Counted from the first letter of the stretch, positions 5,286 through 63,535 are shown. The stretch is DNA of 64,000 nt from Candidatus Doudnabacteria bacterium (GCA_041497195.1 JBGQGB010000001.1:213504-277503), one strand, 5' to 3'. Made by a program: numbers and translations. Notes: generated by a model not told the origin, from the letters alone.

Positions 5286-5322
5286 ATGGCATTGGTGGAA
5301 CATCGATCCTCCAGTTTAGGCG

Positions 5323-8102: not shown

Positions 8103-8103
8103 A

Positions 8104-8658: not shown

Positions 8659-8667
8659 AAAATGTCC

Positions 8668-9795: not shown

Positions 9796-9844
9796 TGGTT
9801 TGTCTAAGACAGAATTTTTGTTTCAATTTGGAGAACTTATTTAT

Positions 9845-9853
9845 ATTATAGCA
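9845..9853 (-). promoter_or_regulatory. extended -10 element (TGCTATAAT on minus strand) upstream of pilM
   Basis: Sits in the 110-nt gap between the 453-aa gene and pilM. The -35 is weak. Confidence 0.3.
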
Positions 9854-9905
9854 CAAATCGAACCAAAAGTAAAACAAAACGCAAAACGATACATCCAAGC
9901 TTTCT

Positions 9906-13438: not shown

Positions 13439-13441
13439 ATT

Positions 13442-46146: not shown

Positions 46147-46154
46147 CTCTTTGC

Positions 46155-46772
46155 ATGGCCAAGGAAAAAACCGCTATTATCATTTTGGGAGGAGGTTTGA
46201 AAAGGAATAAAAATGGAAGCTGGCGAACAGCCAATTATGGCAAAGCAGGCGACAAATTCGGCATGACCGGGGACCGCTTGCGGATAATCGCCGGCGCATA
46301 TTTGGCTCAAGACCACGGCGAATACCTTGTTCTTGCGGCGGGCGGGCGGGGCCAATATAAAAATATCCCCGGGTCTCCTAATATTTCTAGGGTAATTAAA
46401 AATGAGCTTCTAGAACTAGGGGTCCCTAAAAAACAAATTCTGGAAGAGAGCAAGTCAGATACGACTTACCGGCAGCTGCAGAATGTCACCAGATTAGTTC
46501 GCAAGCTGCGAGTTATTAAAGTTTTTATCCTAACCAACCAATGGCATATTCCGCGAATTCTGGCTTTACTAAAACATAACCCTGGGCTACGTAAACTCGC
46601 CGGATACGAGCCAGAACTGCTCTCAGCGGAAACCATTGTGTTAAAATATGATCGGAAAAAATGGAGAAAAATCATTCAAACAGCCCGTTCCAGCAAAGAG
46701 TTTAAAAAACGTGTGAAGCTTGAAATGAATGGCATTAAAGCTATTAAAAATCAAACCTACTTTTACAAATAA
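46155..46772 (+). CDS. DUF218 (YdcF/ElyC/SanA-like) domain protein
   Basis: AIIILGGG...LVLAAGGRG...SKSDTTYRQL pattern. Confidence 0.5.
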   Translation: MAKEKTAIIILGGGLKRNKNGSWRTANYGKAGDKFGMTGDRLRIIAGAYLAQDHGEYLVLAAGGRGQYKNIPGSPNISRVIKNELLELGVPKKQILEESKSDTTYRQLQNVTRLVRKLRVIKVFILTNQWHIPRILALLKHNPGLRKLAGYEPELLSAETIVLKYDRKKWRKIIQTARSSKEFKKRVKLEMNGIKAIKNQTYFYK

Positions 46773-46775
46773 TAT

Positions 46776-47858: not shown

Positions 47859-48516
47859 TATAGTCACTGACAATAAAAAAAGCTGGTTTTACAGCAAAGT
47901 TATAAGACTGGCCAAACGGATCAGAGCCCTCAGCCACCGTGTTAAAATATTATCTGATGCCGCAAAATTGCCGAGTCGCTCGGATATTACATTTTTTTTA
48001 AGCTACGAAAACTACATTCCCCGCAAAGTCCGCTACCAAAGCCGTCATAATATCGTGATTCACGCCAGTGATCTGCCACGAGGCCGCGGCATGTCCCCGG
48101 CTACATGGCAAATTGTAGCTGGGCAAAAAACGATCCCGGTTACGTTATTTGAGGTTGCCGACGGTTTTGACTCGGGGGATTTCTACCTAAAAGACAAATT
48201 TCATCTAGACGGGACAGAATTGATAGAGGAGTGGCGGGAAAAACTTTACCTATGCATGGAGAGAATGATTTTGAAATTTGTAAATAATATTAACAACCTG
48301 GAACCTCTGAAACAACGGGGAAAAATAAGCGTCTATCCACGTCGGACTTTCGAAAACAGCAAGCTTGATATCAACAAGTCGCTAAAATCGCAGTTCAACC
48401 TTCTGAGAGTGACAGACAACGAAAGGTACCCCGCCTTTTTCAACCACCGCGGTAACAAATATATTTTGAAGGTTTATAAAAAATCGGCAAATCACAAAGG
48501 TAATAAAGAAAAATAG
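47848..48516 (+). CDS. formyltransferase-family protein (Fmt/PurN N-domain-like; sugar N-formyltransferase candidate)
   Basis: HASDLPRGRGMSPATWQIVAGQK contains the conserved Asn/His/Asp catalytic-region pattern of formyltransferases. 222 aa. Confidence 0.6.
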   Translation: MLINIVTDNKKSWFYSKVIRLAKRIRALSHRVKILSDAAKLPSRSDITFFLSYENYIPRKVRYQSRHNIVIHASDLPRGRGMSPATWQIVAGQKTIPVTLFEVADGFDSGDFYLKDKFHLDGTELIEEWREKLYLCMERMILKFVNNINNLEPLKQRGKISVYPRRTFENSKLDINKSLKSQFNLLRVTDNERYPAFFNHRGNKYILKVYKKSANHKGNKEK

Positions 48517-49687: not shown

Positions 49688-50662
49688 CTATTTATTTGGA
49701 GTTTCTTCAAAATATTTTTTATACCAAATGTAAGTTTCCTTAACCCCTTCTTCGAAACTGTATTTCGGCTCCCAAGCCAAAAGCCGTCGCGCTTTCTCAT
49801 TGCTAATGCTTTGCTCCTGAATTTCATTTTTATGATTATTCAAGACTCGGTACTGACAAGTTTGTCCTAAAATTGAGGAAATTTTTTCGATCATTGCTTT
49901 TACGGAAAAATTGGAGTTCGCGCTAAAATTGAATGCCTCACCGGCAATCTTATCAATTTTCTCAGCCAATAATACATACCCCTCCACTACGTCTTTGACG
50001 TAAAGATAGTCCCGTGTAAAATTTCCGTCACTTCTGACTTCTAAAACCTTTTGGTTTATGACGGCATCCATGATCCCCGGGATCAAACGACTAAAGTTTA
50101 GGTCTCCCGGGCCGAAAATATTTCCAAACCTGCTCACGGCAACTGGTAACCCATAAGTTTTATAATAAGAAAGAGCGATCAGGTCGGCACTCGATTTGGA
50201 AACTTCATAAGGATGATCGCCCGCGAGTTTTTGAACCTCAGTAGCCTTCAGGCAGTCTTTGCCGTAAGCCTTATCACTTGACGCCACGATGACCGCTTTT
50301 ATATAAGGCGAGCGGCGCGCCGCTTCCAAAATATGCACGGTGCCCATGACGTTCGTTAAAAAAGTCTCATACGGATTGACGTAAGCGGCTGTAACCGTAG
50401 ACTGAGCGGCCACATGAAAAATATATTCGATTTCGTATTTGGTGACTACGTCTATGACCCGTCGAAAATCGGTTATGTCGCACCACGCGTTCACAACCTT
50501 TGTCCCTAAGCTGCGACCAGCAAAATAGGATTGCGGATTATGAGACCGGGTGGTGATGTGGACCTTGGCACCCCGGGCAACTAAGCTTTCCGTCAAATGT
50601 CCGCCGACTAGCCCGGTACCACCCGTAACCAAAACCCTTTTTTTTGTCAGTGCTTGCATCAT
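49688..50662 (-). CDS. rfbG: CDP-glucose 4,6-dehydratase-like SDR
   Basis: VLVTGGTGLVGGHL, YEVSKSSAD (YxxxK). Lies directly downstream of the cytidylyltransferase. Confidence 0.7.
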   Translation of the reverse strand: MMQALTKKRVLVTGGTGLVGGHLTESLVARGAKVHITTRSHNPQSYFAGRSLGTKVVNAWCDITDFRRVIDVVTKYEIEYIFHVAAQSTVTAAYVNPYETFLTNVMGTVHILEAARRSPYIKAVIVASSDKAYGKDCLKATEVQKLAGDHPYEVSKSSADLIALSYYKTYGLPVAVSRFGNIFGPGDLNFSRLIPGIMDAVINQKVLEVRSDGNFTRDYLYVKDVVEGYVLLAEKIDKIAGEAFNFSANSNFSVKAMIEKISSILGQTCQYRVLNNHKNEIQEQSISNEKARRLLAWEPKYSFEEGVKETYIWYKKYFEETPNK

Positions 50663-50664
50663 AT

Positions 50665-51492
50665 CTATTTTTCATCCTTCCAGACTTTCCAAAAAGGTTC
50701 ATGTGCCCACTGCGAATTCAATTCTTCCATATCCCGATGGGTATCCATACACTTCCAACCCCCAGGGTGACTATACATGGACAATTGTTTAATTTCCGAC
50801 AACGGAACAAATACCTCTTCGATCATACTGTTGAGTTGTACGAAATCGAAAACTTCCTTTTTAAAAACCATAAAACCGCCATTAATATAATCTTGCCCTG
50901 TGCCCGCACGCGAATTTTGTAATTTTTTTGCATTTTCACTTAGACTGACAACCCCGGATTGGTGAAATCCCGTGACCTTTTGCCGGCTGCCGTCAAGCAA
51001 AATAACTCCAAAACGAGTCAAAAGGCGAACCCCGGTAATCGTGCCGATAGTATTTTGCTCTTTATGAAACTTCAAAAGTTCAATCAGGTTGACGTCGCCT
51101 ACACCGTCGCCGTAGGTGACCATAAAATTTTCGTCCCCGTCCAAATAAGGCGCAACGCGGCGTAATCGTTCTCCTGTCAGGGTATCTTGTCCGGTATCGA
51201 CGAATGTAACCTTAAAACCGTCGCCATTATCATTATGAAAGACTAATTTGTTTGTCTCGGTATTTAAAGAAAAATCATTCGCATAAATCCGCTGCCTTAA
51301 GAAATAATCCTTGATCATATCCCCCTTATACCCCAAACATAAAATAAAATCTTTGTAGCCATAATGAGAATAAATTTTCATAATATGCCAAAGAATCGGT
51401 CTTCCTCCGATTTCTACCAAGGGTTTGGGTTTAAATTCAGTTTCTTCGCGCAGGCGAGTGCCCTTGCCTCCGCACAAAATAACGACTTTCAT
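50665..51492 (-). CDS. rfbF: glucose-1-phosphate cytidylyltransferase
   Basis: MKVVILCGGKGTRLREETEFKPKPLVEIGGRPILWHIMKIYSHYGYKDFILCLGYKG. Confidence 0.85.
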   Translation of the reverse strand: MKVVILCGGKGTRLREETEFKPKPLVEIGGRPILWHIMKIYSHYGYKDFILCLGYKGDMIKDYFLRQRIYANDFSLNTETNKLVFHNDNGDGFKVTFVDTGQDTLTGERLRRVAPYLDGDENFMVTYGDGVGDVNLIELLKFHKEQNTIGTITGVRLLTRFGVILLDGSRQKVTGFHQSGVVSLSENAKKLQNSRAGTGQDYINGGFMVFKKEVFDFVQLNSMIEEVFVPLSEIKQLSMYSHPGGWKCMDTHRDMEELNSQWAHEPFWKVWKDEK

Positions 51493-51533: not shown

Positions 51534-52559
51534 TCAAGGAATCATGGAAAATCCTGCAAGTGTCATCAGCAACAATGACTGAAAAACTGAACGGTTGCCG
51601 CCCCAGGCAAAGTCTATGAACAGTCCCGATTTCTCGCTGAATATAATCGCCAGGGAATCATACAAACCCCCTACGGACAGATATTCAACTCGACCAAAAA
51701 TTAAATCCATAAGCCCCCGGATCTTCATAGTCGTCATTAGATTGCTCTCTGGTAGATCTACGCCAATAAATTGCAGATACTTCCGATCCAGGTCATCAGG
51801 TGTTTGGTCTTGCCCGTCCAAACGCAGTCCTCGGTAAATCCCACCCTCGACCTTATAATCAAGGCGAGACAGGTTAGGGCCGCTCAAATCATAATCCGCG
51901 ATCGCACCGCCCTCTCCGATTATATGGAACTTGCCGACGCTGTAGTCGCGCGGCTCGACAATGCTCGCTTTGATCCCGTTCCGGAATATTATTTGCCGTT
52001 CGGCAATTTTCCCGTGCGAATAGGTATTTTTTATTTTGGAAATATAATTTACCCCGGTTAGCATTTTCAAAGTTGCCAGGGCATGATAACGATAGCCGCT
52101 GTGAATCAAGCTTATTTCTTTAATCTTGCCGATCTGGCCTTGGTCAATAAGTTTGCGCGCCAGCACAAAAGGGGGCAAAGTGATTGAGTCTTCCGAAACG
52201 CCAACGGATCTAAATTTTTTAAAATATCTGGCACAGCGGATGTCATGCAAACTCAAAACAGGCGTATCAATCAGTAATCGCACGTGCTGTGTATTATAAA
52301 CGGCCAATTTCTTGAGCACATCGGGAACCTGTTCCAAAGTTACTGCCACCATAATCAAATCCAGGGATCGAAAATCGATTCTCGAGAAATCATTGATCGT
52401 CTGGATTTGCATTTTCCGGTTGAAAAGCGAAATATCTTTAATTGACCGCGAATAAACAGCAAGCAATTCAAATTCATCTTGCAAGCAGTAGATTGCCGGC
52501 AAAATAGTATTTTGGACCCGCTGACCTGAACCAATCACCAGAACGTTTTTCTTAGGCAT
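51534..52559 (-). CDS. Gfo/Idh/MocA-like oxidoreductase (divergent)
   Basis: NVLVIGSGQRVQNTILPAI N-terminal Rossmann-like motif. The start is set at MPKKN, 8 nt overlapping the upstream stop. Confidence 0.4.
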   Translation of the reverse strand: MPKKNVLVIGSGQRVQNTILPAIYCLQDEFELLAVYSRSIKDISLFNRKMQIQTINDFSRIDFRSLDLIMVAVTLEQVPDVLKKLAVYNTQHVRLLIDTPVLSLHDIRCARYFKKFRSVGVSEDSITLPPFVLARKLIDQGQIGKIKEISLIHSGYRYHALATLKMLTGVNYISKIKNTYSHGKIAERQIIFRNGIKASIVEPRDYSVGKFHIIGEGGAIADYDLSGPNLSRLDYKVEGGIYRGLRLDGQDQTPDDLDRKYLQFIGVDLPESNLMTTMKIRGLMDLIFGRVEYLSVGGLYDSLAIIFSEKSGLFIDFAWGGNRSVFQSLLLMTLAGFSMIP

Positions 52560-53991
52560 TTGATTTGATATGATCAGCCAGTCTGATCGCCAAGGCAATA
52601 ATAGTTGCCGTGGGATGTGCATACCCAGCAGTCGGAAATAGCGAACTGCCTGCGACGTATAAATTATTAAGCGTATGGACTTTGCAGTTTTGGTCCACGA
52701 CAGACGTTTTCGGCTCAGTTCCCATGCGCGTCGTACCCATGTGATGCGAAGCGTCAGTTTTGATTGGCCATTCGGCCGCAGTCTCATCCAACAAGGGACT
52801 CTCCAAATCCCCTATTTTCATTCGGTTTAATTCCGCCTTGAGGGTCTCATGCAAGATGCGCATGGTTTTTTTCTCCAAATTGCTTACTGACCAAAAAATT
52901 TCGGCCCGCGGCCTGCCGAACGCGTCCCGAGTCTGACCCAATGCAATCCGGTTCTCCGGATTCGGCTCCTGCTCCATGAAGTTCCGGAGTGAAATCGAGA
53001 CCGGCTTTGGATTGACAATTTTCCGGATGAATTTGGCAAAAATTGAAGATCGTCCAAAATTCGGCTGTAGCTGAACATAGCTGTTCAGAACTTGTTCGTG
53101 TTTCTGGATCTGTTCGCTCAAGCCCAGCCCAATGAAGTACTGTCCGAATTGGTCGTAGCCGTCCCAAAAACCGCTCAAATCCAGATTCTGATCGGATAAC
53201 CTAATCGTTCCCACTTTTCCTTTAGGATGGTCCATATAGTATCGGCCAACCTGGTCAGATTCGTTTCCGATGCCAGATAGCAAAAGCAAACGAGCATTTT
53301 CAATCCCGCCGCAAGCCAAAATGAAGACTTTCGCATTAACACGGAAAGCATTACCGGCGAAAGTTTTCACCGCCACGTTCTCCACTCCGGAATTAGCTGC
53401 CCCAGCCGGCAAATTCAAAGCAACGGCATTGAAATAGACTTGGATATTTGACGATTGTTCAAAACGAGTATAAAAAACTTTTGCAAAATTGATTTTGTCC
53501 TGGTCCATGCGCCGCACGATGGTCGGGTTTACAGTACTCCGGGCAAATAAATTTTCATGGGGCCCAAAGGCTTCTGGGCTTGGAGCCTGGACCAATTTCG
53601 CAGCCCGTTCGTAATACGCGTCCAAATCCTCCCGGCCTATCGGCCAGCCCGAATGCGGCACCCAAGGCCGTGCAGCAAAATCAATCTGGTCATGGAGTTT
53701 CCAAATGCCGGCCCAGACCTGCGTCGTCCCACCAAAGCCTTGGGTCCGGGATTTTGGCGAGATTGGCAAACCAGTTGTTCCAAACTCATACAGTGCATCA
53801 AGTTCGGTCTGATTTTCCAGCGCGCCGCTTTCCAAAACGCAGATGCTTTTTTGTTGACTTTCCAGTTCGAGCGCCAGCGGGATACCTGCCGCGCCCGTGC
53901 CGATGATACAAATATCAGCCTCGATAATCGTATCATCTGCAATGGTCCGCGCGTCAATGAACATATTCCAAGCCTTTCCAAACTTCCGCAA
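52552..53991 (-). CDS. GMC-family FAD-dependent oxidoreductase
   Basis: DICIIGTGAAGIPLALEL (FAD GxGxxG) and C-terminal HHMGTTRMG (GMC active-site His region). Confidence 0.75.
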   Translation of the reverse strand: MRKFGKAWNMFIDARTIADDTIIEADICIIGTGAAGIPLALELESQQKSICVLESGALENQTELDALYEFGTTGLPISPKSRTQGFGGTTQVWAGIWKLHDQIDFAARPWVPHSGWPIGREDLDAYYERAAKLVQAPSPEAFGPHENLFARSTVNPTIVRRMDQDKINFAKVFYTRFEQSSNIQVYFNAVALNLPAGAANSGVENVAVKTFAGNAFRVNAKVFILACGGIENARLLLLSGIGNESDQVGRYYMDHPKGKVGTIRLSDQNLDLSGFWDGYDQFGQYFIGLGLSEQIQKHEQVLNSYVQLQPNFGRSSIFAKFIRKIVNPKPVSISLRNFMEQEPNPENRIALGQTRDAFGRPRAEIFWSVSNLEKKTMRILHETLKAELNRMKIGDLESPLLDETAAEWPIKTDASHHMGTTRMGTEPKTSVVDQNCKVHTLNNLYVAGSSLFPTAGYAHPTATIIALAIRLADHIKSNA

Positions 53992-55012
53992 AGGTAATAT
54001 CTCTCATGCAGCGGGAAAAATCCTCGCGCAAAGCATTCGGGCAATTCATCATGTAGCATTTCGGATGTACTGGCTCCTGGCACTCGCCCACAATCACAGC
54101 TTTTGCTCCCTGCGGGCGCTGGCTCGTGCTACAGCACGGGCCCATTAAATCCACCACCGGCACAGCCAAAGCGTCAGCGATATACAAGGGTCCAGTATCA
54201 GCGGAAACAAACACTGAAAAAATGCTTACTAAAGCTGCCAATTGACTTAATGAAAACAAACCTGCTGTATTGAAAAACATGCCGCGGTCCACACTTAAGG
54301 CCAGTTTCTCCAATTTCTCCCGCTCCGGTAGCGAACCGACTCCAATCACGCAAAATCCAGACTCATTTAATCGGTTCACCAAGTGCGCAAAGTTCTCAAT
54401 TCCCCATTCTTTGAAATCCTTTCCCGCAGTGACGGAGATTCCCGCTAACTTTTTGCCTTGTAATCCGTACTGGTTTAAAAATTGGTCGGCTACCACGCGA
54501 TCTTGCGCATCAAAATAAACCTCTCGCCGCCGGACCGGATTTGTGACCCCCAATGCTTTCGCCATCTCCAAATAATGATCCTGGGCCGCGGTGACGAAAT
54601 CATAGTTAAACTTCTTGGTCAAAAAAAACGAATAAAGTTTTTCCTTTTTTGACATTTTGTCATGCACGGTCCCGAGCAAATTCGGAATTCCCGCGACAAC
54701 GCACCTTTTCAAGATTTCCACGCTGGGCATCAAAATCAATACGTGCGAATATTGTTTCTGTCTGAGTATCCGGATACTTACTGTTCTGGGCAAAATTTCT
54801 CCGACCGCATCATTGCCTTTCAGAACTTCTTCAGCAAAAGTACCGGCTACTACATCAACCGGTTCGGCAAAATTGTTTTTCAGCGTTCGAAACAAAGGCG
54901 TCGTGCAGACCAAATCCCCGATTTTTCCCTCTTGTACGACTAAAACCCGGCGCCTGCCGGTAGACGATTTCAAAAATAAGCGAGCCGTGAGCGTTGTGAG
55001 GAAATCAAACAT
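53954..55012 (-). CDS. glycosyltransferase family 9 (ADP-heptose-dependent heptosyltransferase)
   Basis: VLVVQEGKIGDLVCTTPLFRTLK N-terminal motif. GT-B, 352 aa. Confidence 0.7.
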   Translation of the reverse strand: MFDFLTTLTARLFLKSSTGRRRVLVVQEGKIGDLVCTTPLFRTLKNNFAEPVDVVAGTFAEEVLKGNDAVGEILPRTVSIRILRQKQYSHVLILMPSVEILKRCVVAGIPNLLGTVHDKMSKKEKLYSFFLTKKFNYDFVTAAQDHYLEMAKALGVTNPVRRREVYFDAQDRVVADQFLNQYGLQGKKLAGISVTAGKDFKEWGIENFAHLVNRLNESGFCVIGVGSLPEREKLEKLALSVDRGMFFNTAGLFSLSQLAALVSIFSVFVSADTGPLYIADALAVPVVDLMGPCCSTSQRPQGAKAVIVGECQEPVHPKCYMMNCPNALREDFSRCMRDITFAEVWKGLEYVH

Positions 55013-55964
55013 TCAAGTAATTTTTGACATAATCATTGATGCCGTCTTCCAATTCGAAAAAGGCTTCCGAATAACCGGCTCTCCGCAAACTGCTGACATC
55101 AGCTTGAGTGAAATACTGATACTTTTGCCGAATCTCCCGGGGCATCTCGAAAAATTCTAGATTTGGCTCTCGGTTGAGCGAGGCGAAAAGTGCTTTACCC
55201 AGATCCAGAAAACTCCTAGCCTTTCCCGTCCCGACATTAAATATCCCGCTGTGTTGCGGATTATCCAAAAAAAACATAATCACCTTCAGCACATCCTTGG
55301 CGTAAACGAAATCTCGCTTCTCGCCCCCATCCGCCAATCCGGGCTGGGATGACTTAAATAAACGCATCTTCCCGGTTTGTTTTATTTGTTCATAGCCCTG
55401 GCAGATAAGCGAGGCCATCTTACCTTTATGACCCTCATTCGGCCCATAGACATTGAAAAATTTCAAGCCGACCCATTGACCGGGTTTTTGCCTGCTATCC
55501 AAGACCATTTCGTCAAACCAATATTTCGAATAACCATACAGATTCAGCGGGGTGAACCGCCGTGCCTGATCGCTGAACCCTTGACTGCCGTCTCCATACG
55601 TTGCTGCCGAAGACCCGTAAATAAAGCGCGAGCCGGCTCGAACGCAATAATCAAACAAAACTTTTGAGTACTGGGTGTTGTTCTCGCGGAAATATTGCTC
55701 ATCCTGCACGGTAGTATCCGTACAGGCGCCCAAATGGATGATGGTTTCGATTCCCGTAAGCTCGGGGAGTATAGTTAAAAATTCGTTCTTGCCAAAATAG
55801 CGCTCGTATTTCAAATTTTGCAAATGAGTTTTTTTCCGCTCATAGTCAAGCTGATCCACGACATAAAGCGACTGGAGGCCACGCAGGTTCAGCGCCTGGA
55901 CCAAATTTGAGCCGATGAACCCGGCGGCTCCAGTGACGACGATTTTGTTACTTTGCTCCGACAT
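55005..55964 (-). CDS. hldD: ADP-L-glycero-D-manno-heptose 6-epimerase
   Basis: IVVTGAAGFIGSN, YGSSAATYG, NLYGYSKYWFDE, FNVYGPNEGHKG, KRDFVY, FNVGTG, YFTQAD, LRRAGY. Block-by-block match to E. coli HldD. Confidence 0.9.
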   Translation of the reverse strand: MSEQSNKIVVTGAAGFIGSNLVQALNLRGLQSLYVVDQLDYERKKTHLQNLKYERYFGKNEFLTILPELTGIETIIHLGACTDTTVQDEQYFRENNTQYSKVLFDYCVRAGSRFIYGSSAATYGDGSQGFSDQARRFTPLNLYGYSKYWFDEMVLDSRQKPGQWVGLKFFNVYGPNEGHKGKMASLICQGYEQIKQTGKMRLFKSSQPGLADGGEKRDFVYAKDVLKVIMFFLDNPQHSGIFNVGTGKARSFLDLGKALFASLNREPNLEFFEMPREIRQKYQYFTQADVSSLRRAGYSEAFFELEDGINDYVKNYLNV

Positions 55965-56958
55965 TGAAAATCTTACTTACTGCGCTTTTCAGGTCGCGGG
56001 CATAAAAATTCGGCTCCAGTTTTAGATCTCTAGGCATGGGGGGACCCAGCTTAATCGTGTTTGCATTGACCTCACGGCCCATAACAATATCCGCAGGTCC
56101 ATCTCCAATCACCCAACTATGATTGAGGTTCAAATGAAAATCTTTTACTGCCTGCATGATGAGTACTGTCCCTGGTTTCCGGCAATCGCAGTGATCAGCG
56201 GGTTTGTGTGGACAAATATAAATGGCATCGAGCCGGATACCCCGCATGCGGAGTTCCCGCTTCATGTGTTGGTGAAGTTTTATGGTGTGGCTTTTCGGAA
56301 AATAGCCGCGACCGATGCCAGATTGATTGGTAATCACAATGATTTTATACTCCGATTTACTGAGTCTCTTTAGGGCCTGGGGAGTGCCGGGTACGAATTC
56401 GAAGTCTTCGATTTTGTGAATGTATCCCCGTTTATTTAAATTAATCGTTCCGTCTCTATCAAGGAAGACAGCTCGAGGCGAGGAGCTGGCATTTGCGTTT
56501 TTGAATTTTTTTATCAAATTCGAAGTTGAGTAGCCTAGCTTCAATTTTATTACCGCGACGCGGCCACCGTATCTCTCAACGGTAGCGCGTTCAATGCAAT
56601 TTTTTCCCCAGTCCGACCCGTTTGCGTGAATCGCCGGGCGTACAACAGACAAAATTATTTTTGGGTTGATCTCGTCAAACAAACACACATAATCAACGCA
56701 CTCCAAAGCCGCAAGCAAAACCGCACGGGCGTTCTGGTCAAGAATCGGCCGCTGCGACCCTTTATAGCTTCTGACTGACTTATCGCTATTCAAAAGAACC
56801 GCGAGCCGATCGCCTTGGGCCCTGGCTTGGCGCAACAACTCCAAATGGCCGGGGTGCAGAATATCAAAACTCCCGTTCACGGTGACCAGCTTTTGTTTCT
56901 GGTTTTTCATTTGACGGGAGATGGCGGCTAACTGCTTTCTGGATCTAAACTTTTTCAT
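55948..56958 (-). CDS. hldC: fusion of D-beta-D-heptose-1-phosphate adenylyltransferase (HldE domain II/HldC) and D,D-heptose-1,7-bisphosphate phosphatase (GmhB)
   Basis: N-half: LVTVNGSFDILHPGHLELLRQARAQGDRLAVLLNSD..GYSTSNLIKK (cytidylyltransferase-like). C-half: LDRDGTIN..., ITNQSGIGRGYF and CDCRKP (HAD/GmhB). The start is set at MKKFRSRKQ. Confidence 0.75.
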   Translation of the reverse strand: MKKFRSRKQLAAISRQMKNQKQKLVTVNGSFDILHPGHLELLRQARAQGDRLAVLLNSDKSVRSYKGSQRPILDQNARAVLLAALECVDYVCLFDEINPKIILSVVRPAIHANGSDWGKNCIERATVERYGGRVAVIKLKLGYSTSNLIKKFKNANASSSPRAVFLDRDGTINLNKRGYIHKIEDFEFVPGTPQALKRLSKSEYKIIVITNQSGIGRGYFPKSHTIKLHQHMKRELRMRGIRLDAIYICPHKPADHCDCRKPGTVLIMQAVKDFHLNLNHSWVIGDGPADIVMGREVNANTIKLGPPMPRDLKLEPNFYARDLKSAVSKIFNVGAK

Positions 56959-58264
56959 AATCGCCGAGGTTGATTTTTTTGCTTTCTTCAAAACGATTAG
57001 TATCAGCTTCCTCGTGATGTGTACTGATCTCCAAAATTTCCGAGTTCTCCATTCCCGTGAAACGGTGTACGGTCCCTGGAGGGATCCGAATATAATTATT
57101 CTCCCGGAGATGCAAAACTTTGTCACCTAGCTCCAAACGAACATGCCCTTTGGTGATGAGAAACATCTCATCTTTCACCTTGTGGGAGTGCAGACTGCAT
57201 TGATACCCTTTATTCAAAGACAGCAATTTGGAGCAATATTTGTCGTTATTTTCAAGCCACTTTTCAAATCCCCAAACCTTTGGAACAACTTCCACAGCGC
57301 TCACATCATGGTGAGAGACGAGAGCTGACAGTAATTCTTCAGCTGAGAGAGTGGCAGTACCAAATTTTTGCACGACTATTTCACCCGCCAAATTTCCTAA
57401 ATGGGCCGCCTCTGCCAAGTTCAAGTCGCACACCATGCCCAAAGCCACTACCGCGACAACCGTATCTCCCGCGCCGCTGACGTCAAATACTTTGACTTTT
57501 CTCGAGGGTAAATGCTTCGCCGGTTTTGCTTTTTCGAAAACATAAATTCCGTTTTCTCCCATGGTCAAAACTACAGATGCATTGAAATCTTTGACTAATT
57601 GCGGGCCAATTTCTTCGAGAGTAATGGAACCGGTCATTTCCATACCTTCTTTTACGTTTGGCGTTATCACGTCAACGCCATAAAAAATTTTTTTATTGCT
57701 TGGCTTGAGGTCGGCAACGATTAACTTGTGGCCTTTTTTCCCCAGCTTGATGATCTCCGCCACCGCCCGTTCGGACAAAGCCCCTTTCGCATAGTCGGAA
57801 AAAATTATCGCCTCGCAGGCTGGCAGCAGCCGTTTGACTGTTGTAATCAGCCGATCCTCCTCGTCCGTATCCAAAGACTTCACAACCTCGTCATCAACGC
57901 GGAGAAGCTGATGGCCAGCTGCCACTAGCCGATGCTTCAAAATTGTCGGACGAGTGGTGAAATCCAGAACGCCAGCGGCAGAAATCCGATTCTTCTTCAA
58001 TAATTCGAGAATCTTGGTTTTCCTTGAATCGTCCCCAACAAAACCACAGAGAGTAACGCGGGCGCCCAAGGCCGCTGCATTATTGGCCACATTTGCCGCC
58101 CCTCCCAACACAAAATTTTCCTCTAATTTATGCAGTATCGGGACCGGGGCTTCGGGCGACATACGTGTTACTTCGCCATAGGTGTACTGGTCGAGCATGA
58201 TGTCGCCGACTACTAAAATCCCTTTTCCGGCAAATTGTTTGATGGCGCGGCGCAGATGTTCCAT
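56945..58264 (-). CDS. hldA: D-beta-D-heptose-7-phosphate kinase (HldE domain I/HldA, PfkB family) fused to a C-terminal phosphomannose-isomerase type II-like cupin domain
   Basis: N-terminus ILVVGDIMLDQYTYGEVTRMSPEAPVPIL...GGAANVANN...GFVGDD, and a GAGD motif later. The C-terminal roughly 115 aa (VPKVWGFEKWL...SLHSHKVKDEMFLITKGHVRLE...YIRIPPGTVHRF..ILEIS..EEADTNRFE) matches the cupin PMI domain of ManC/AlgA-type enzymes. Confidence 0.75.
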   Translation of the reverse strand: MEHLRRAIKQFAGKGILVVGDIMLDQYTYGEVTRMSPEAPVPILHKLEENFVLGGAANVANNAAALGARVTLCGFVGDDSRKTKILELLKKNRISAAGVLDFTTRPTILKHRLVAAGHQLLRVDDEVVKSLDTDEEDRLITTVKRLLPACEAIIFSDYAKGALSERAVAEIIKLGKKGHKLIVADLKPSNKKIFYGVDVITPNVKEGMEMTGSITLEEIGPQLVKDFNASVVLTMGENGIYVFEKAKPAKHLPSRKVKVFDVSGAGDTVVAVVALGMVCDLNLAEAAHLGNLAGEIVVQKFGTATLSAEELLSALVSHHDVSAVEVVPKVWGFEKWLENNDKYCSKLLSLNKGYQCSLHSHKVKDEMFLITKGHVRLELGDKVLHLRENNYIRIPPGTVHRFTGMENSEILEISTHHEEADTNRFEESKKINLGDYEKV

Positions 58265-58277
58265 AGGTTTTTAAATT

Positions 58278-59414
58278 CTATTTTATTTTTCGAGAGGAGT
58301 CAATGCTCGCCAAGATGTGCAGTACTCGTTCCTGCCATGAATACTGCCATACGAAATTCCGGTTTTCTGAAAAATCTCGGGCTTGGGCTCGGCGGATTGC
58401 TTGTGCCAAAGCCACGGGGTCGTCCGGACGAGTAAACTCAACCTGGGACTTAGAAACAATTTCCCGCACCGAGGGCAAATCGGCAGCCACGATTGGTCGT
58501 CCTATGGCTAAATACTCAAACAGTTTCAAGGGTGAGGTATACAAACTGGATATTTCAGCTTTTGCAGAATTGGGCAAAACCAAAACATCGGCCGCGTTCA
58601 GGTACTGAGGAATTTTGTCATAGGAGATATGGCCAACCAACATGATATTGCCGGGCTGGTGCAGTTTTTCCCCCAGATATTTTTTAAAAGCGCTCATCTC
58701 GTGGGGTGAACCGCCGACCAAAACAAATAAATAATCATCCGCAAAACTCCGCGCTGCTTCAGCCAGAACATACACTCCCTTCCAAGCAAAAAAATTCCCA
58801 GTATACATGATGATCTGTTTGTCCTGCGGCAGTCCAAGCTGTTGCCGACTATGGGTTTTCGATTCAGTTATCTGGAACTGTTTGAGGTCAACCCCGTCGG
58901 GTAAAACAATAATTTTTTCTGCCGGATAGCCCAATCGTTCCAAAGCTTCCCGCAGGCCGTGGCTGATCACAACAATTCGCTGTAAACGCTTGGCCAACGG
59001 CTGGACGCTGCGCCGAATGGTGCGTGAAATATTGTGCACTTCCAAAAACACCGGCGCTCCGGGCGGAAACCCGCGCGCTGATAATTCGTCGCGGGTATAG
59101 ATCAAATCGGACTGATGGTGTCCCAGATACCTGCGGACTGCTCTGGCAAATGACCAGCTCTGCAAAACGCTCAAGAGCTTCGGAATCAAATCGCTCCACC
59201 GGATCAAATCCAAAGTCGGCAGATACACTATCTCAAACGAGGGCTTGAGCCCATAGTATACAAAAGCGTTACCAGCAATATGAGAGACCCGACGCGGGAC
59301 TATCAATACTACCTCGTGATTAAGGTTGGCAAAAGCTTCGCACATTTTCATGATTTGAACGCCGTGGGCTTTCTCCGTGGGAATACGGGCATTGGCAATA
59401 TAAAATATTTTCAT
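58278..59414 (-). CDS. glycosyltransferase family 4
   Basis: GT-B group 1 layout. The C-terminal domain has the conserved acidic EX7E-like region. Confidence 0.65.
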   Translation of the reverse strand: MKIFYIANARIPTEKAHGVQIMKMCEAFANLNHEVVLIVPRRVSHIAGNAFVYYGLKPSFEIVYLPTLDLIRWSDLIPKLLSVLQSWSFARAVRRYLGHHQSDLIYTRDELSARGFPPGAPVFLEVHNISRTIRRSVQPLAKRLQRIVVISHGLREALERLGYPAEKIIVLPDGVDLKQFQITESKTHSRQQLGLPQDKQIIMYTGNFFAWKGVYVLAEAARSFADDYLFVLVGGSPHEMSAFKKYLGEKLHQPGNIMLVGHISYDKIPQYLNAADVLVLPNSAKAEISSLYTSPLKLFEYLAIGRPIVAADLPSVREIVSKSQVEFTRPDDPVALAQAIRRAQARDFSENRNFVWQYSWQERVLHILASIDSSRKIK

Positions 59415-59419
59415 GATTC

Positions 59420-60478
59420 TTAATTCAAGTTTAATTGAAACAAAAGCTCCTGACCAATGGCAAGGGGAGTGAATTTTTGAGTGTAAAGCTCGTAGGTATT
59501 CTGCGCCAATGTCTCACGAAGAGCCTGATCGTCGCGAAGGGACAATATCGCTTCTGCCAATGCGCGCGGATCTGCTGGCGCGCAAGTTATCAGGGTTCCG
59601 CTCGGAAATGCCTCCCTGATTGCCGGGGTGTCGGCCGTGATGACTGGCTTGCGGCATGCAACGGCTTCAAAAATTTTATTCGGTACGACTAGCGCGGTTT
59701 TTTTATTCTTTCCAAAAACCCCCAAACAGAGATCAGCCTGGTTCAGAGCGTCAGCTAGCCCGTGATAATCAGTCTCCGGAAAAAACACTATATTGTGAAG
59801 TTGTAATTGTTGGGCCTGGACTTTCAAACTTCGATATTGACTATTAAACCGGGTAATCAGATGAAATTCTATGTCTGGCCTTGATTGGAGCAATGCCGCG
59901 GCCTGCAAAATTGTCTCTGCCCCGTGGAAAGGAACAATATGTCCGTGCCAGTGCACGACAAATTTGGAAAGGCTTGTTGTCGGCGAAGGTCGTGCCCGAG
60001 GAAAAAAAATTTCATTATCTGCTCCCACCAGAACCCGAATAAATTTTTGGGGGGAAAGGTGGTATTGGGTGACGAAATAATCTATCTGTACTTGGGTATC
60101 CAGAAGCACCCGGTAAGCCAAGTTGCAAGCGGATTTTTCCAAACATCGCAGGTACCAGCTCCGCCACCCGTTCCGCGGCGACCGAGCCCGATCCTCAATC
60201 TCAGTCAAATAGAGAGACACAAACGCATCTAGAACCACTGGTTTTTTAGTCAGCAACCGGGCAAACCACATCAATGAATAGCCGGCCATGCCGACCAGCA
60301 AAACATCGTAGGAATTTTTCAGCCTGCGATGCTGCCGATACAAACCCCAATATTTTGCGAAGCCGCGGCGGCGGGTTTGACATTCGACGATATGGACGCC
60401 ATTTGCCGTCAAGCCTTTCTTCAGCACCACAATGCGCGGGTAATCGGGAATATAATTTCCAAAAAAACAGATGGTCAT
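59420..60478 (-). CDS. glycosyltransferase family 4-like
   Basis: GT-B group 1-like, 352 aa. Confidence 0.6.
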   Translation of the reverse strand: MTICFFGNYIPDYPRIVVLKKGLTANGVHIVECQTRRRGFAKYWGLYRQHRRLKNSYDVLLVGMAGYSLMWFARLLTKKPVVLDAFVSLYLTEIEDRARSPRNGWRSWYLRCLEKSACNLAYRVLLDTQVQIDYFVTQYHLSPQKFIRVLVGADNEIFFPRARPSPTTSLSKFVVHWHGHIVPFHGAETILQAAALLQSRPDIEFHLITRFNSQYRSLKVQAQQLQLHNIVFFPETDYHGLADALNQADLCLGVFGKNKKTALVVPNKIFEAVACRKPVITADTPAIREAFPSGTLITCAPADPRALAEAILSLRDDQALRETLAQNTYELYTQKFTPLAIGQELLFQLNLN

Positions 60479-61392
60479 GACAAAATCCGTTGCTTTAGGA
60501 TCCTAATACCCTCAAACCAATATTCTTCCCGACGAGGCCTTGTGTAATGCTTGACTACCGTATTTTGATCGACTCTGCCGCGAATGAAATATGTTTGCTT
60601 GTCGAGCGCCTGGATGCGGTTGTGGCGGCTTAAAACATACGCATGACCAGCCTGTTCAAAGAAATATAAATCACTTTGCGGACCAATTTTTTGGCAAAAT
60701 TCCTCCAAATCCGCTAATTGATAGTCCTGTTTTGCATAGCCGATTATCCCGGCGTTTAAAGTGGCAATATCGGCGGGAAATTTATTGTCTGCAAAAACAA
60801 AATTCATAGGCACGCGGCCGGCCAAAAAAAACGGGTGCGTTTGTTTATGAAGGAGGTCGAGAATTTCCGTAGGCGTGCGAAACCACAAAACATCGGTATC
60901 CAAAAGCAGACGCGCGGATGCTGGGGAGACAAAATATGGATCAACTAACTTGGTGGCAAAAACGACTTTTTGGTTTTGCCGAAACGAACGGGCATAAGGC
61001 GAGTTTTTAAGCCAAATTTCCAAAGCTTGTGTTGTCGCCCATTCATAATCAATAATTTCCGCCTGCGGAAATAATTTCGCGACAATTTTTCTATCCTCTT
61101 CAGAAAAACTCCCATCTTCGTGAATATAGACCCGACCTGACTGCAAAACAACCTGATACCATGATGCGAGCGACCAGAGCAGCATGTCGAGGTCTGTATG
61201 GGAGCAGAGAAAGTGAATGGAATAACTGGGGTCGAAGCTGGCCTGATCGAGCGGGTGCTCTAGAGTTCTGATCTTTGGGCCGAGGAAAAAACGATAATAA
61301 GCATAGGACAGAGGGCGGCGGTAGTGGAAAAAAACACGATAAAGATAGCGCAATTCTTGGTAAAAACGAAGTTTTTTTATAGAATTTTTCAT
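60475..61392 (-). CDS. hypothetical protein, possible GT-A-fold nucleotide-sugar transferase (DxD: LLDTDVLW)
   Basis: Context between GT4 genes with ATGA overlaps. It has a DxD-like motif only. Confidence 0.3.
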   Translation of the reverse strand: MKNSIKKLRFYQELRYLYRVFFHYRRPLSYAYYRFFLGPKIRTLEHPLDQASFDPSYSIHFLCSHTDLDMLLWSLASWYQVVLQSGRVYIHEDGSFSEEDRKIVAKLFPQAEIIDYEWATTQALEIWLKNSPYARSFRQNQKVVFATKLVDPYFVSPASARLLLDTDVLWFRTPTEILDLLHKQTHPFFLAGRVPMNFVFADNKFPADIATLNAGIIGYAKQDYQLADLEEFCQKIGPQSDLYFFEQAGHAYVLSRHNRIQALDKQTYFIRGRVDQNTVVKHYTRPRREEYWFEGIRILKQRILS

Positions 61393-62474
61393 CCAGAAAA
61401 CTCCTTCCCTATTCGTTTCACCAAGTTTTCAAGATTATGCTCCGCTTCCACCCAAAAACGCAGTTTCTCAGTTAATTTCTCTCGTTCACTAAGCGGTAAA
61501 TTCTTAAGATACAAAATTTTCCCAGCCAAATCATTAGGGTTATTACTTTCAAATAACAGCAACGGAGAAATTTTTTTCAGGGGCTGGAGGAATGCTTCGT
61601 TTGAAGTAAGTACCAAAGTCCCCGAGGCGGCTGCTTCCAAAACGGATTTATCCATACTCCCGGTCTGGCTCAAATTAACAAACAAATCACCTTCTCGATA
61701 TTGCTCCTGCACCTGCTCGTAATTTTGTTTCCCTTTAAATTCCACAATTCCCTCCAGACCAGTCTCGCGGACGAGTGCCACCAGTGAATCAAAATAAGAT
61801 TGCTGCGTGGGCAAGCCCAGGCCGCCGTAAATGTCAATCTTCAAATTTTTTTCTCCCTGATCGCGTAAAATCTTGGCGGCTTTGATCAAAATTTCATAAC
61901 TTTTGACTGGGCTAATCCGACCTATACTCACTATCCGAAAATCTGGCGATTGTTTTTTCGAGACTGGATGAAATTTCTCTAAATCAATGCCGTGACCAAC
62001 GACTTTAACTTTGTGGGAAGTGAGGCGAAAACTCTCCTTTGAAGCCGTCAAAACTGCGTCAACGAGCCAGGTTGCGAGTCGCAATTTTAGATCGACTGAT
62101 TTATGTGTATACCAGAGAACCATTTTGGCGCCTTTTTTGCCGAACAACTTCAGCAAAGGCCAAGCTGCAATGGCATAGATTGGGTGCATGTGAATAAAAA
62201 TTCCGTCTGCTCCGGGGAGCAATTCTCTCAAATACCTCCAATAATTCAGAAGTTCTCTGCTGCGTGATTTTCCTTTCTCTTTGCCCATGGAATAAACGGT
62301 CGCATTAGCCGGAAGGCCAGAATCGTCGCCACACTCCAAACAAATGATTTCAATACGTGCGACTGCGACCGAAAGCTTTTCCAACCACATAAAAACAAAC
62401 CCTGTCCGGGCATCTCCTCGATCGATTTTGCGCGTCACAAAAATTAGCTTCATCGGTGCACTACCTCTTTCCAA
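61389..62474 (-). CDS. glycosyltransferase family 4
   Basis: GRISPVKSYEIL...TGSMDKSVLEAAASGTLVLTSNE. Confidence 0.7.
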   Translation of the reverse strand: MERGSAPMKLIFVTRKIDRGDARTGFVFMWLEKLSVAVARIEIICLECGDDSGLPANATVYSMGKEKGKSRSRELLNYWRYLRELLPGADGIFIHMHPIYAIAAWPLLKLFGKKGAKMVLWYTHKSVDLKLRLATWLVDAVLTASKESFRLTSHKVKVVGHGIDLEKFHPVSKKQSPDFRIVSIGRISPVKSYEILIKAAKILRDQGEKNLKIDIYGGLGLPTQQSYFDSLVALVRETGLEGIVEFKGKQNYEQVQEQYREGDLFVNLSQTGSMDKSVLEAAASGTLVLTSNEAFLQPLKKISPLLLFESNNPNDLAGKILYLKNLPLSEREKLTEKLRFWVEAEHNLENLVKRIGKEFSG

Positions 62475-63535
62475 AAATTAACAATCGACTCGATTGCTCT
62501 ATCGTTATCGACTCTGATGGTTTGCTCTGCCTTGAACCCCAATTGCCTGGCCAAATCAGGATTGCCCAAAAGCTCGAGTATTGCTGCTGTTAATGCTTCG
62601 GCCTCGTTGATCGGAACTAGTATGCCATTTTCATGATCTCGGATGAGAGTACCGGGACCGGCCGTCAGTGTGGCAACAACAGGCTTGCCTGAAGCAGCGG
62701 CTTCTACAATCACTTTCCCATAACTTTCCACTGTTGAGGGAAGGACGAGAAAATTGCAGGCCGCATAATAATCGCGCAACTCCTGGGAAGAAAAAGTGCC
62801 TAAAAAATTGACTCGTTTGAGCTCCTGAGCTTGTTTGACGAGTTTTAATTTTTCCGAACCGTCACCTAAGACCAAAAGTCGGGCAGTTGGCGACCTGTCC
62901 TCGACCGCGCGCCAGCTTTTCAGCAACAAAGAAACATTTTTTTCCGGTTCCAAGCGGCCTACATATAAAACCAAACTTTCCTGCGGGAAGAGCTTCAAGA
63001 TTTTTTCCCCGTCCCCGTTAGCAACCTTTTGGGCATCCACTGGCGTTGGTAAAACAAAAATTGTTCCCGGGTCAAAACCTAGCGCATTCAGTTTCCGCTG
63101 CTGAGGCGGAGTATTGACCTTGATAGCATCAGCGCGACGCAAATTGCTCTCTCCTATTTTCAATTTGAGCGGGTGAGCATACCCCCAAAAATCACCGTGT
63201 AGATTGATAATCAATTTGGCCCGAGGGTGATATCTCCGAAACCACCTCGCTAAAATTGCCGTCCAGAAAGGGTCCTGGGCCAGAAAAATATCATAATGAT
63301 TCTGCCGGGCCAGGCCCCTACCTATCCCGTAAGCCACAAAAAAACGCACCAGCTTGCTGCCTCCGGGACTGGGATATGTCCTGAGTTTTCCCAAATTCCA
63401 GGAGCGGCCATCAGTCAAAACAATATCATCAATCTGCCCGGCTAAGGCTGCATACTTTTGGTGCCGCAGGAGGGCCTCAGCGTCCTCAACCGGCCCTACC
63501 AGGCTCGGGTCCAGGCTAAACATCAAAATCTTCAT
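62450..63535 (-). CDS. glycosyltransferase family 4
   Basis: GRLEPEKNVSLLL...ESYGKVIVEAAASGKPVVAT. Confidence 0.7.
   Translation of the reverse strand: MKILMFSLDPSLVGPVEDAEALLRHQKYAALAGQIDDIVLTDGRSWNLGKLRTYPSPGGSKLVRFFVAYGIGRGLARQNHYDIFLAQDPFWTAILARWFRRYHPRAKLIINLHGDFWGYAHPLKLKIGESNLRRADAIKVNTPPQQRKLNALGFDPGTIFVLPTPVDAQKVANGDGEKILKLFPQESLVLYVGRLEPEKNVSLLLKSWRAVEDRSPTARLLVLGDGSEKLKLVKQAQELKRVNFLGTFSSQELRDYYAACNFLVLPSTVESYGKVIVEAAASGKPVVATLTAGPGTLIRDHENGILVPINEAEALTAAILELLGNPDLARQLGFKAEQTIRVDNDRAIESIVNFWKEVVHR

Follow-up and report, generated by a model that had tools for sequence, protein, structure and literature searches.

A GT9 glycosyltransferase and an ADP-heptose gene module with a fused cupin domain in a surface-glycan gene cluster of Candidatus Doudnabacteria

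Heptose, the ADP-heptose pathway and glycosyltransferases of family 9 (GT9) are textbook markers of the inner core of Gram-negative lipopolysaccharide (LPS), and ADP-heptose is treated as a Gram-negative signature, an innate-immune agonist sensed by ALPK1. In this work we ask what such genes do in a 64,000-nucleotide stretch of DNA from Candidatus Doudnabacteria bacterium (GCA_041497195.1 JBGQGB010000001.1:213504-277503; the whole stretch is called the window below), in which an HldA::cupin fusion, an HldC::GmhB fusion, HldD and a GT9 enzyme are encoded by four consecutive genes. We favour, with a probability of roughly 0.6, the reading that this module of the Candidate Phyla Radiation (CPR), with a cupin domain as its isomerase, supplies the GT9 enzyme with heptose for a lipid-linked surface glycan exported by Wzx and Wzy_C proteins. 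If this is true, LPS-free CPR bacteria would also make ADP-heptose, by a GmhA-independent pathway. A module tied to GT9 that is found in an LPS-free lineage and recurs in many CPR groups is a testable case of a monoderm heptose glycan and a way into the barely known cell-envelope glycobiology of CPR; it also cautions that GT9 or hldE matches in metagenomes are not evidence for LPS or an outer membrane.

Genes of the heptose module and the predicted pathway

An earlier reading of the sequence, here called the original prediction, had placed hldA-cupin, hldC-gmhB, hldD and a GT9 gene at 53954-58264, and every gene assignment and coordinate was correct (Table 1). The co-directional operon with GT4 glycosyltransferases (five were seen), CDP-hexose genes and an oxidoreductase, which it had also described, was found as well. 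Neighbouring genes of the module overlap by 8-17 nt (55012/55005, 55964/55948 and 56958/56945), thus the four form one transcription and translation unit; a promoter and terminator scan hinted, at consensus level only, at an internal promoter upstream of hldA::cupin. As the identical gene string was found on independent contigs of JGI (including one of 364 kb), Logan and NCBI (metagenome-assembled genome) assemblies, the module is not an assembly artefact.

The kinase HldA, the phosphatase GmhB, the adenylyltransferase HldC and the 6-epimerase HldD are all encoded in the module, the first three with matches at E 1e-46 or lower and HldD, alone among the four, with a score above its equivalog cutoff. 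In HldC::GmhB the heptose-1-phosphate adenylyltransferase is N-terminal (residues 69-209) and the heptose-1,7-bisphosphate 7-phosphatase C-terminal (residues 217-358), counted on a 392-aa open reading frame (ORF) that extends mechanically to a GTG at 57126, the gene call being 336 aa long. The Cupin_2 and MannoseP_isomer matches cover residues 326-426 of HldA::cupin. The HldC motif, LKLGYSTS, is without the arginine (STTR5) of the (F/L)XXGRSTT hallmark, which is associated with CDP/UDP-heptose synthesis or promiscuity (PMC11573728); since, in addition, HldD is of the ADP type and above its cutoff, ADP is the likely nucleotide, and ADP-L-glycero-beta-D-manno-heptose is the most likely product predicted from these sequences.

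[quoted passage not shown] The later steps are suggested by gene context. At the cytoplasmic face of the membrane GT9 would transfer the heptose to an oligosaccharide that the GT4 enzymes encoded nearby would make on a polyprenyl-diphosphate carrier begun by Bac_transf, Wzx would flip the finished glycan, and the Wzy_C protein with its tetratricopeptide repeats (TPRs) would transfer or polymerise it outside the membrane, possibly helped by GT-C enzymes of a PMT-like or YfhO-like kind. The glycan may end up on type IV pilin (prepilin-like ORFs at 9906-12224), on a large Ser/Thr-rich putative S-layer or surface protein, or on a wall polymer. The phosphoglycosyltransferase, the flippase and the Wzy_C enzyme, a member of the O-antigen-ligase/O-oligosaccharyltransferase family, all lie within one gene neighbourhood; because of this context, together with PMT-like GT-C enzymes, a lipid-linked surface glycan is favoured over LPS or direct protein heptosylation.

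The same parts, namely a phosphoglycosyltransferase, cytoplasmic glycosyltransferases, a flippase and a Wzy_C-family enzyme, serve Gram-positive S-layer glycosylation and pilin or general O-glycosylation, and here likewise a candidate surface protein and pilin genes are nearby. A precedent for heptose in a monoderm is the S-layer glycan of Aneurinibacillus, which is made by the GDP/alpha pathway. In contrast to the Gram-positive S-layer system, the window encodes the ADP/beta pathway (HldA/HldC/HldD), not the GDP one (HddA/HddC), and the transferase is a GT9.

Host lineage and the GT9 transferase

Three independent comparisons bear on the host. The nearest named relative of the GT9 protein, 56% identical, is from Candidatus Doudnabacteria (OGE78121.1, locus L007), and every relative above about 27% identity belongs to a CPR/Patescibacteria group or to a bin whose label is generic or doubtful. 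HldA::cupin has more than 120 full-length cluster relatives (48-82% identity), every taxon-named one of which is CPR; those named at 52-57% identity belong to Paceibacterota, Parcubacteria, Daviesbacteria and Liptonbacteria, and Patescibacteria are also named. Relatives of holA, a poorly conserved housekeeping gene, are Doudnabacteria. Because the three sets of relatives agree, the window was placed in CPR/Patescibacteria.

A curated Parcubacterium is without lipid A/LPS genes such as lpxC and kdsA (PMC5220378), and none of the eight freshwater CPR classes has the KEGG modules for KDO2-lipid A and CMP-KDO, the latter the activated form of 3-deoxy-D-manno-oct-2-ulosonic acid (Kdo) (PMC9166423, supplement file 3). 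A Gram-positive envelope has been predicted for CPR (PMC9166423), and they have been placed with Chloroflexi in a monoderm clade (bioRxiv 10.1101/2021.05.31.446380). In our own searches, E. coli LpxA/B/C/D and WaaA gave no tblastn match in the window, in line with the earlier remark that lipid A and Kdo genes are not nearby, and neither Lpx nor WaaA was found in the window with its 20 kb flanks (about 84 kb of the contig) or in any CPR locus. WaaA homologues adjoin GT9 only at the non-CPR loci L048, L058, L064 and L066 (Omnitrophica and others), which served as an internal control. A Pfam scan of the type IV pilus operon at 7482-15196 showed no secretin. From the lineage, and from about 84 kb without a Lpx, WaaA or secretin signal, the host is assigned one membrane, as reported for its relatives, without lipid A or Kdo.

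The GT9 protein is a soluble GT-B protein with no transmembrane segments and matches PF01075 with 75.2 bits (cutoff 22) over residues 83-318. It stays below the LPS equivalog cutoffs (score/cutoff: TIGR02195, 74.1/134.6; TIGR02201, 62.8/170.2; TIGR02193, 48.1/185.3), and named heptosyltransferases share at most 27% identity with it. A family profile, A1, built from the window protein and the 16 sequences most closely related to it, matched 3TOV (4.5e-41), WaaF (2.2e-34) and WaaC (1e-13), each over the full length. Foldseek, run with an AlphaFold2 model (pLDDT 92.3), returned WaaF 1PSW and 3TOV as best matches (TM 0.75-0.81) and WaaC next. Residues D33, K201 and D272 align with D13, K192 and D261 of WaaC, which, with the D(T/S)G motif, we take to be the catalytic residues of that enzyme, and they are kept in 42-43 of the 43 CPR sequences. 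In the window and in over 15 further CPR loci the gene stands directly downstream of heptose genes, although the loci are extensively rearranged.

The original prediction had left room for a place of this enzyme within the WaaC/WaaF clades. By the cutoffs above, and in a neighbour-joining tree of 118 GT9 sequences, it lies outside the WaaC/WaaF/WaaQ groups: in the tree, a rough one of pattern-selected relatives and without support values, it groups with Doudnabacteria and other CPR, apart from E. coli WaaC/WaaF/WaaQ/WaaU. The locus collection is skewed by the peptide patterns used for the genome scan; TibC and AAH are not among the tree's sequences, and TibC was compared via PDB searches only. 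WaaF, WaaC and WaaQ (1PSW, 2GT1/2H1H/6DFE) and Veillonella 3TOV share with the window enzyme the GT-B fold, the Asp/Lys/Asp set and the D(T/S)G motif as well as solubility, and linkage to ADP-heptose genes implies the same donor. The window enzyme differs from WaaF/WaaC/WaaQ in being about 20% identical, below the equivalog cutoffs and on a separate branch, in a host lineage without Kdo2-lipid A, and its neighbours are Wzx, phosphoglycosyltransferase and GT4 genes, not waaA/waaL core genes. Judged by sequence and model, it is a genuine and probably active ADP-heptose-type GT9, neither an LPS-core orthologue nor a bacterial autotransporter heptosyltransferase (BAHT), and a non-LPS heptosyltransferase module is well supported.

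Two observations on the wider GT9 family were made in passing. The Foldseek search also returned, as a strong match, 9grx_1, a subunit of the spinach NDH-PSI supercomplex (E 3e-13, TM 0.70), which is a GT9-like fold within a plant photosynthetic complex. Chloroflexota, another largely monoderm phylum, also have distant GT9 homologues of 23-34% identity (Chloroflexia/Chloroflexota metagenome-assembled genomes, L071-L084), thus non-LPS use of GT9 may reach beyond CPR.

A cupin domain proposed to stand in for GmhA, and competing explanations

Two points go beyond the original prediction, the absence of gmhA and the cupin as its likely substitute. With kinase, phosphatase, nucleotidyltransferase and epimerase assigned, the isomerase is the only step without a gene, which argues for an isomerase role of the cupin domain. 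With the GmhA proteins of E. coli and of CPR locus L050 as queries, tblastn gave no match in the window (E<=10), nor in the flanks or any cupin-bearing locus (E<=1e-3). In all, about 1.4 Mb was searched, made up of the window and 90-odd loci, and the sole match was L050 itself; a SIS domain was likewise not found in the Pfam lists of the parent contig genes and of the other HldA::cupin loci. In L050, the only CPR locus with GmhA (42% identical to E. coli GmhA), the genes for GmhA, GmhB, HldC and HldD are contiguous and there is no cupin, so that GmhA and cupin are mutually exclusive among the loci examined.

The cupin is C-terminal to HldA in the window and in over 120 clusters. In 13 loci it is joined to the N-terminus of HldA, which Pfam confirmed for L021, and in two further proteins it is C-terminal, to HldC alone in P0290 (279 aa; CTP_transf_like::cupin) and to an HldA::HldC didomain in P0319 (587 aa; PfkB::CTP_transf_like::cupin); P0277 (606 aa) is a cupin::PfkB protein with a C-terminal extension. 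Since it is fused to the kinase or the nucleotidyltransferase in at least four architectures, without GmhA, the cupin is probably the missing sedoheptulose-7-phosphate isomerase. In one locus, L093 (6043-9985 and 10001-11359), HldA::cupin divergently adjoins genes for GAPDH, RpiB, ribulose-phosphate 3-epimerase (Rpe) and a split transketolase, which belong to the pentose-phosphate route, the source of sedoheptulose-7-phosphate.

The domain itself scores 35.6 bits against PF01050, the type II phosphomannose isomerase domain (cutoff 23.6), both metal-binding motifs, G-x5-H-x-H-x4-E-x6-G and P-x-G-x2-H, are intact and invariant, and so is the His-x-His...Glu...His ligand set. The best PDB folds for its AlphaFold2 model (pLDDT 93) are 7ZVY and 7ZVM (TM 0.77/0.82), minimal phosphomannose isomerases of the cupin type from Thermococcus; a sequence-only PDB search returned quercetinase and generic cupins and was uninformative. 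[quoted passage not shown] Type II phosphomannose isomerase cupins (PF01050, bifunctional GMP/PMI) and 7ZVY/7ZVM thus share with the window domain a small cupin with a His/His/Glu/His site and an analogous chemistry, ketose-6/7-phosphate to manno-configured aldose phosphate; the window cupin differs from the solved enzymes in its identity of about 16-17%, its fusion to heptose enzymes and the proposed C7 substrate. A mention of a cupin phosphomannose isomerase in a CPR paper (PMC7304191) was set aside, as it concerns an unrelated cupin-type phosphoglucose isomerase, PF06560.

Compared with the canonical ADP-heptose pathway (GmhA, HldE or HldA with HldC, GmhB, HldD), the kinase, phosphatase, nucleotidyltransferase and epimerase are orthologue-like, whereas a SIS-type GmhA is missing from the window and the host is monoderm. 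The fusions are also unlike the canonical ones: kinase::cupin and nucleotidyltransferase::phosphatase here, and cupin::kinase, phosphatase::nucleotidyltransferase, nucleotidyltransferase::cupin and kinase::nucleotidyltransferase::cupin elsewhere. Heptose nucleotidyltransferases have been described as occurring alone, as kinase/nucleotidyltransferase and as SIS-isomerase/kinase/nucleotidyltransferase proteins (Tang et al., Science 2024, as relayed in PMC11573728 and PMC11461863), and the cupin fusions look like a solution parallel to these. The context of one stand-alone cupin, P0272, is not heptose-related, thus we restrict the isomerase assignment to the fused subgroup; stand-alone members make up most of the 947 cupin family representatives at E<=1e-10.

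ADP-heptose biosynthesis in Paceibacteria is mentioned in one sentence of an earlier study (PMC9166423); the linkage to GT9, the non-LPS interpretation and the cupin were not found described in the literature on ADP-heptose, monoderm heptosyltransferases and Patescibacteria heptose. The cupin, a candidate sedoheptulose-7-phosphate isomerase that probably replaces GmhA, is the most novel element. That phosphomannose-isomerase-like cupins form an unrecognised, non-homologous isomerase of this kind across much of CPR, feeding diverse non-LPS GT9 enzymes that build heptose into pilin, S-layer or wall glycans of ultra-small monoderms, we propose tentatively and at slightly under even odds. The recurrent fusions nominate a candidate new enzyme class for the first committed heptose step, and a GmhA analogue of unrelated fold is biochemically interesting because GmhA is pursued as an antibiotic-adjuvant target (PMC11056994).

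The cupin may have another task, as a phosphomannose isomerase, as an epimerase or modifier of a heptose phosphate or of ADP-heptose, or as a regulatory sugar-binding domain, with a GmhA or another isomerase, for example an RpiB-like one, encoded elsewhere. We consider this rather unlikely, though several points weigh against our interpretation. The cupin fold is functionally promiscuous, and the fold matches, non-isomerases among them, all lie at about E 1e-7 and are not specific; stand-alone family members are found in non-heptose glycan contexts, and HldA without cupin and without a nearby GmhA occurs in CPR loci L022, L037 and L047. In the Doudnabacteria-type variant described below an RpiB-like isomerase is fused to a nucleotidyltransferase and cupins are fused to a phosphatase-like region, thus a cupin need not always be an isomerase. 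Ordinary bacteria often carry gmhA apart from hldE, so that its local absence, taken alone, is weak evidence; the absence of lpx/kds and of gmhA is drawn from lineage-level literature and about 84 kb of this contig. To these points belong also the NCBIfam equivalog scores of HldA (315/345), HldC (158/181.5) and GmhB (166/178), slightly under their cutoffs, and the GT9 genes beside HldA::cupin in L091, L092 and L094, which fall outside the group of the window GT9. Owing to the latter there is no single CPR heptosyltransferase lineage, and one CPR-wide GT9 clade, as we had first assumed, was dropped; several GT9 lineages are tied to the heptose module in CPR. The isomerase role of the cupin is nevertheless preferred: the isomerase is the sole gap in a pathway otherwise accounted for, the fusions to pathway enzymes and the mutual exclusion with GmhA are as given above, and sequence and fold point to the metal-dependent aldose-ketose isomerase branch, of the type II phosphomannose isomerase kind, with metal ligands that are invariant. 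RmlC-type epimerases, by contrast, are not known to have invariant cupin metal ligands.

The GT9 enzyme has its own alternatives. That the module is an ordinary LPS inner-core one, in a diderm host with a WaaC/WaaF/WaaQ-type GT9 acting on Kdo2-lipid A and with lpx/kds elsewhere in the genome, is hardly credible and was rejected on taxonomy, cutoffs, tree and context. It would explain why a GT9 and an ADP-heptose pathway, the classical LPS-core signature, occur together, and why WaaF is the nearest solved structure with the same catalytic residues; yet the GT9, HldA::cupin and holA relatives place the host among CPR, reported as monoderm and without lipid A/Kdo, every LPS heptosyltransferase model is far below its cutoff, WaaA and Lpx are missing from the window and all CPR loci when non-CPR GT9 loci do have WaaA, the pilus operon is without a secretin, and the context is one of Wzx, phosphoglycosyltransferase, Wzy_C and GT4. 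The original prediction had pointed to heptose-containing protein, S-layer or pilus glycans in place of LPS should the host be monoderm, with the BAHT family as a model; its non-LPS part is supported here, its BAHT part is not. A GT9 that acts in the cytoplasm on Ser/Thr of a surface protein (an adhesin, a pilin or an S-layer protein), in the way that TibC and AAH heptosylate autotransporters (4RAP/4RB4; iron-containing dodecamers), would share with BAHT the superfamily, ADP-heptose and a non-LPS acceptor, and would suit a host without LPS that has a pilus operon and a large Ser/Thr-rich protein nearby; GT9 offers one precedent for protein substrates and CPR several divergent GT9 lineages. We find it unlikely. 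The A1 profile reached TibC with E=1.7 and 10.6 bits over 45 residues only, compared with full-length matches to WaaF and 3TOV, TibC was not among the matches of a single-sequence search at E<=1, and its fold is less similar (TM 0.54-0.58). At 352 aa the window protein is 54 residues shorter than TibC (406 aa), and Cys36 is the only cysteine conserved across the CPR group, hence there is no TibC-type four-Cys iron finger; Pfam scans of the window showed no autotransporter domain as a substrate, and a full apparatus for lipid-linked assembly and flipping is present. The identity with BAHT/TibC was rejected on profile, fold and Cys pattern. Finally, GT9 may not use heptose at all, with ADP-heptose used by another transferase, exported or serving as a signal: CAZy lists a non-heptosyl activity for GT9, the enzyme is divergent from named heptosyltransferases, and seven other glycosyltransferases are in the operon. 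Its position immediately downstream of the heptose genes, here and in the other CPR loci, and its conserved ADP-heptose-binding and catalytic residues make this very improbable, and transfer of heptose by GT9 to a lipid-linked glycan remains our preferred reading.

The surrounding glycan genes and related CPR loci

Nearly the whole window is a surface-glycan supercluster (Table 1).

Table 1. Features of the window, with positions counted from its first nucleotide
Feature	Position	Strand	Evidence or remark
GT9 glycosyltransferase, 352 aa	53954-55012	minus	Pfam PF01075, E 6.5e-21
HldD, ADP-glycero-manno-heptose 6-epimerase, 319 aa	55005-55964	minus	TIGR02197, 383.6 bits (cutoff 274.6)
HldC::GmhB fusion, 336 aa	55948-56958	minus	rfaE_dom_II 1.6e-46; GmhB PRK08942 5.4e-49
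HldA::cupin fusion, whole gene	56945-58264	minus	HldA part and C-terminal cupin
HldA kinase part	57305-58264	minus	TIGR02198 rfaE_dom_I 4.8e-94, residues 8-315; PfkB 9.1e-40
Cupin part of HldA::cupin, residues ~321-439	56945-57304	minus	Cupin_2 1.4e-9; MannoseP_isomer PF01050 1.2e-8
GT4	58278-59414	minus	Pfam; same operon, upstream of hldA::cupin
GT4	59420-60478	minus	Pfam
Protein of 305 aa, no assigned family	60475-61392	minus	no NCBIfam match
GT4	61389-62453	minus	Pfam
GT4	62450-63535	minus	Pfam
GT4, cut by window end	63532 onwards (to 64000)	minus	Pfam
GMC-family FAD oxidoreductase	52552-53964	minus	Pfam GMC_oxred_C 5.5e-25; pyranose-oxidase-like C-terminus
Protein of 341 aa, no assigned family	51534-52559	minus	no NCBIfam match
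Glucose-1-P cytidylyltransferase-like and CDP-glucose 4,6-dehydratase-like pair	49688-51492	minus	TIGR02623 264 bits, TIGR02622 212 bits; both below cutoff
Nonulosonic-acid set (pseudaminic/legionaminic-type)	44042-48516	plus, divergent	PseB-like, PseC-like, DUF218, NeuB with SAF, formyltransferase-like
Wzx-type flippase (Polysacc_synt)	24196-25539	minus	PF01943 2.9e-23
Initiating phosphoglycosyltransferase (Bac_transf, WbaP-like)	17814-19193	plus	PF02397 1.5e-63
Wzy_C membrane protein with C-terminal TPRs, 816 aa	15298-17748	minus	PF04932 1.4e-22; ~13 hydrophobic segments
PilB	13442-15196	minus	Pfam T2SSE
PilC	12221-13438	minus	Pfam T2SSF
Prepilin-like ORFs	11847-12224, 11267-11860, 9906-11267	minus	N-terminal MKGFTLVE-type motifs
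PilM	8668-9795	minus	Pfam PilM_2
ORFs in PilN and PilO positions	8104-8658, 7482-8153	minus	assigned by position

The genes for the GMC oxidoreductase and the 341-aa protein follow GT9 directly downstream, with stop and start codons that overlap. The triad is kept in Doudnabacteria L007 (11068-13237), where both follow its GT9 at once (54% and 40% identity by tblastn); the oxidoreductase also recurs beside or near GT9 in L012 (16674-17939), and the 341-aa protein is found only in L007. The two may carry out a sugar-oxidising tailoring step. The cytidylyltransferase and dehydratase pair adds another sugar pathway to this run of genes on one strand. The supercluster also holds GT2 and GtrA genes, many methyltransferases, a YfhO-like protein and two 676-aa polytopic membrane proteins; NCBIfam returned nothing for the 305-aa, 341-aa, 794-aa and the two 676-aa proteins. 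Beyond the right end of the window, on the parent contig, the operon begins with a UDP-glucose-dehydrogenase-like pair, an epimerase, GT4 genes and a PMT/PMT_2 GT-C enzyme.

Several side observations concern these genes. Those at 28666-29919, 37338-38558, 41283-42905 and 49688-51492 suggest a CDP-linked 3,6-dideoxy or branched-chain sugar, and include an RfbH (E1 dehydrase)-like protein (354 bits), a TylC3-type sugar C-methyltransferase and an acetolactate-synthase-like thiamine-diphosphate enzyme, which we presume may be of YerE type. The two adjacent ORFs at L089:3428-5048 (275 and 267 aa), both matching the N-terminal and central domains of UDP-glucose/GDP-mannose dehydrogenase, may stem from a tandem duplication, a frameshift or the splitting of one gene. 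Before the operon start, about 8.5 kb past the right end of the window, lies a 1297-aa protein with no Pfam domain (its C-terminal 490 residues are L089:1-1470); it heads the supercluster, has an extremely high content of Ser, Thr, Asn, Gly, Ala and Val, looks beta-rich and repetitive, and might be the target, as an S-layer or surface glycoprotein. In L091, Wzy_C and the heptose module come after a similar protein of 1238 aa, likewise domain-less.

The pilus context claimed in the original prediction was borne out by PilM, PilC, PilB, the prepilin-like ORFs and the ORFs in PilN and PilO positions. The pilus operon is headed by the Wzy_C-TPR gene, which shares the strand of pilB and is placed 101 nt upstream of it; the arrangement recalls pilin O-glycosylation of the TfpO/PglL type, here in a pilus system of monoderm type.

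In other CPR loci the module occurs in several layouts. The window order (HldA::cupin, HldC::GmhB, HldD, GT9) recurs in L094 with a Wzx flippase ahead, and, without HldD, in L091, with two Wzy_C proteins ahead, a related Wzy_C/TPR gene abutting the heptose module. Cupin, HldA, GmhB, HldC and GT9 are contiguous in 13 loci of Peregrinibacteria, Peribacteria and Patescibacteria, and a complete Daviesbacteria genome has a PMT_2 gene next to HldA::cupin, GmhB and GT9. Wzx-like flippases, relatives of the window flippase among them, neighbour GT9 in many CPR loci; the other typical neighbours are GT4/GT2 enzymes, methyltransferases, B12-radical-SAM proteins, carbamoyltransferases and large GT-C-like membrane proteins. 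By their sequences, these neighbourhoods appear to be parts of a polyprenol-linked surface glycan pathway.

A second CPR variant stands beside GT9 in L007, L009, L012, L014 and L016 (e.g. L016:4234-5112 and L007:4286-5386). It consists of an RpiB-like isomerase fused to a cytidylyltransferase-like nucleotidyltransferase, a cupin-less PfkB kinase, and a 366-aa protein with matches to cupin hidden Markov models and a C-terminal stretch that is HAD-like by eye, with no Pfam hit. This variant may make a different nucleoside-diphosphate heptose or another such sugar.

Multiple genes for B12-binding radical-SAM (~477 aa) and SPASM-type radical-SAM proteins flank GT9 in many Parcubacteria-type loci (L008, L013, L017, L018, L030, L069 and others) and hint at unusual glycan tailoring such as C-methylation. 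Near the left end of the window lie tRNA-Arg(TCG) at 5213-5286 (+), tRNA-Lys(CTT) at 6227-6302 (+) and a small ORF at 4917-5303 (-), the N-terminal half of which resembles, as judged by eye, an excisionase-like helix-turn-helix protein; the GC content shifts between the two tRNAs, and the site may be a small integration hotspot.

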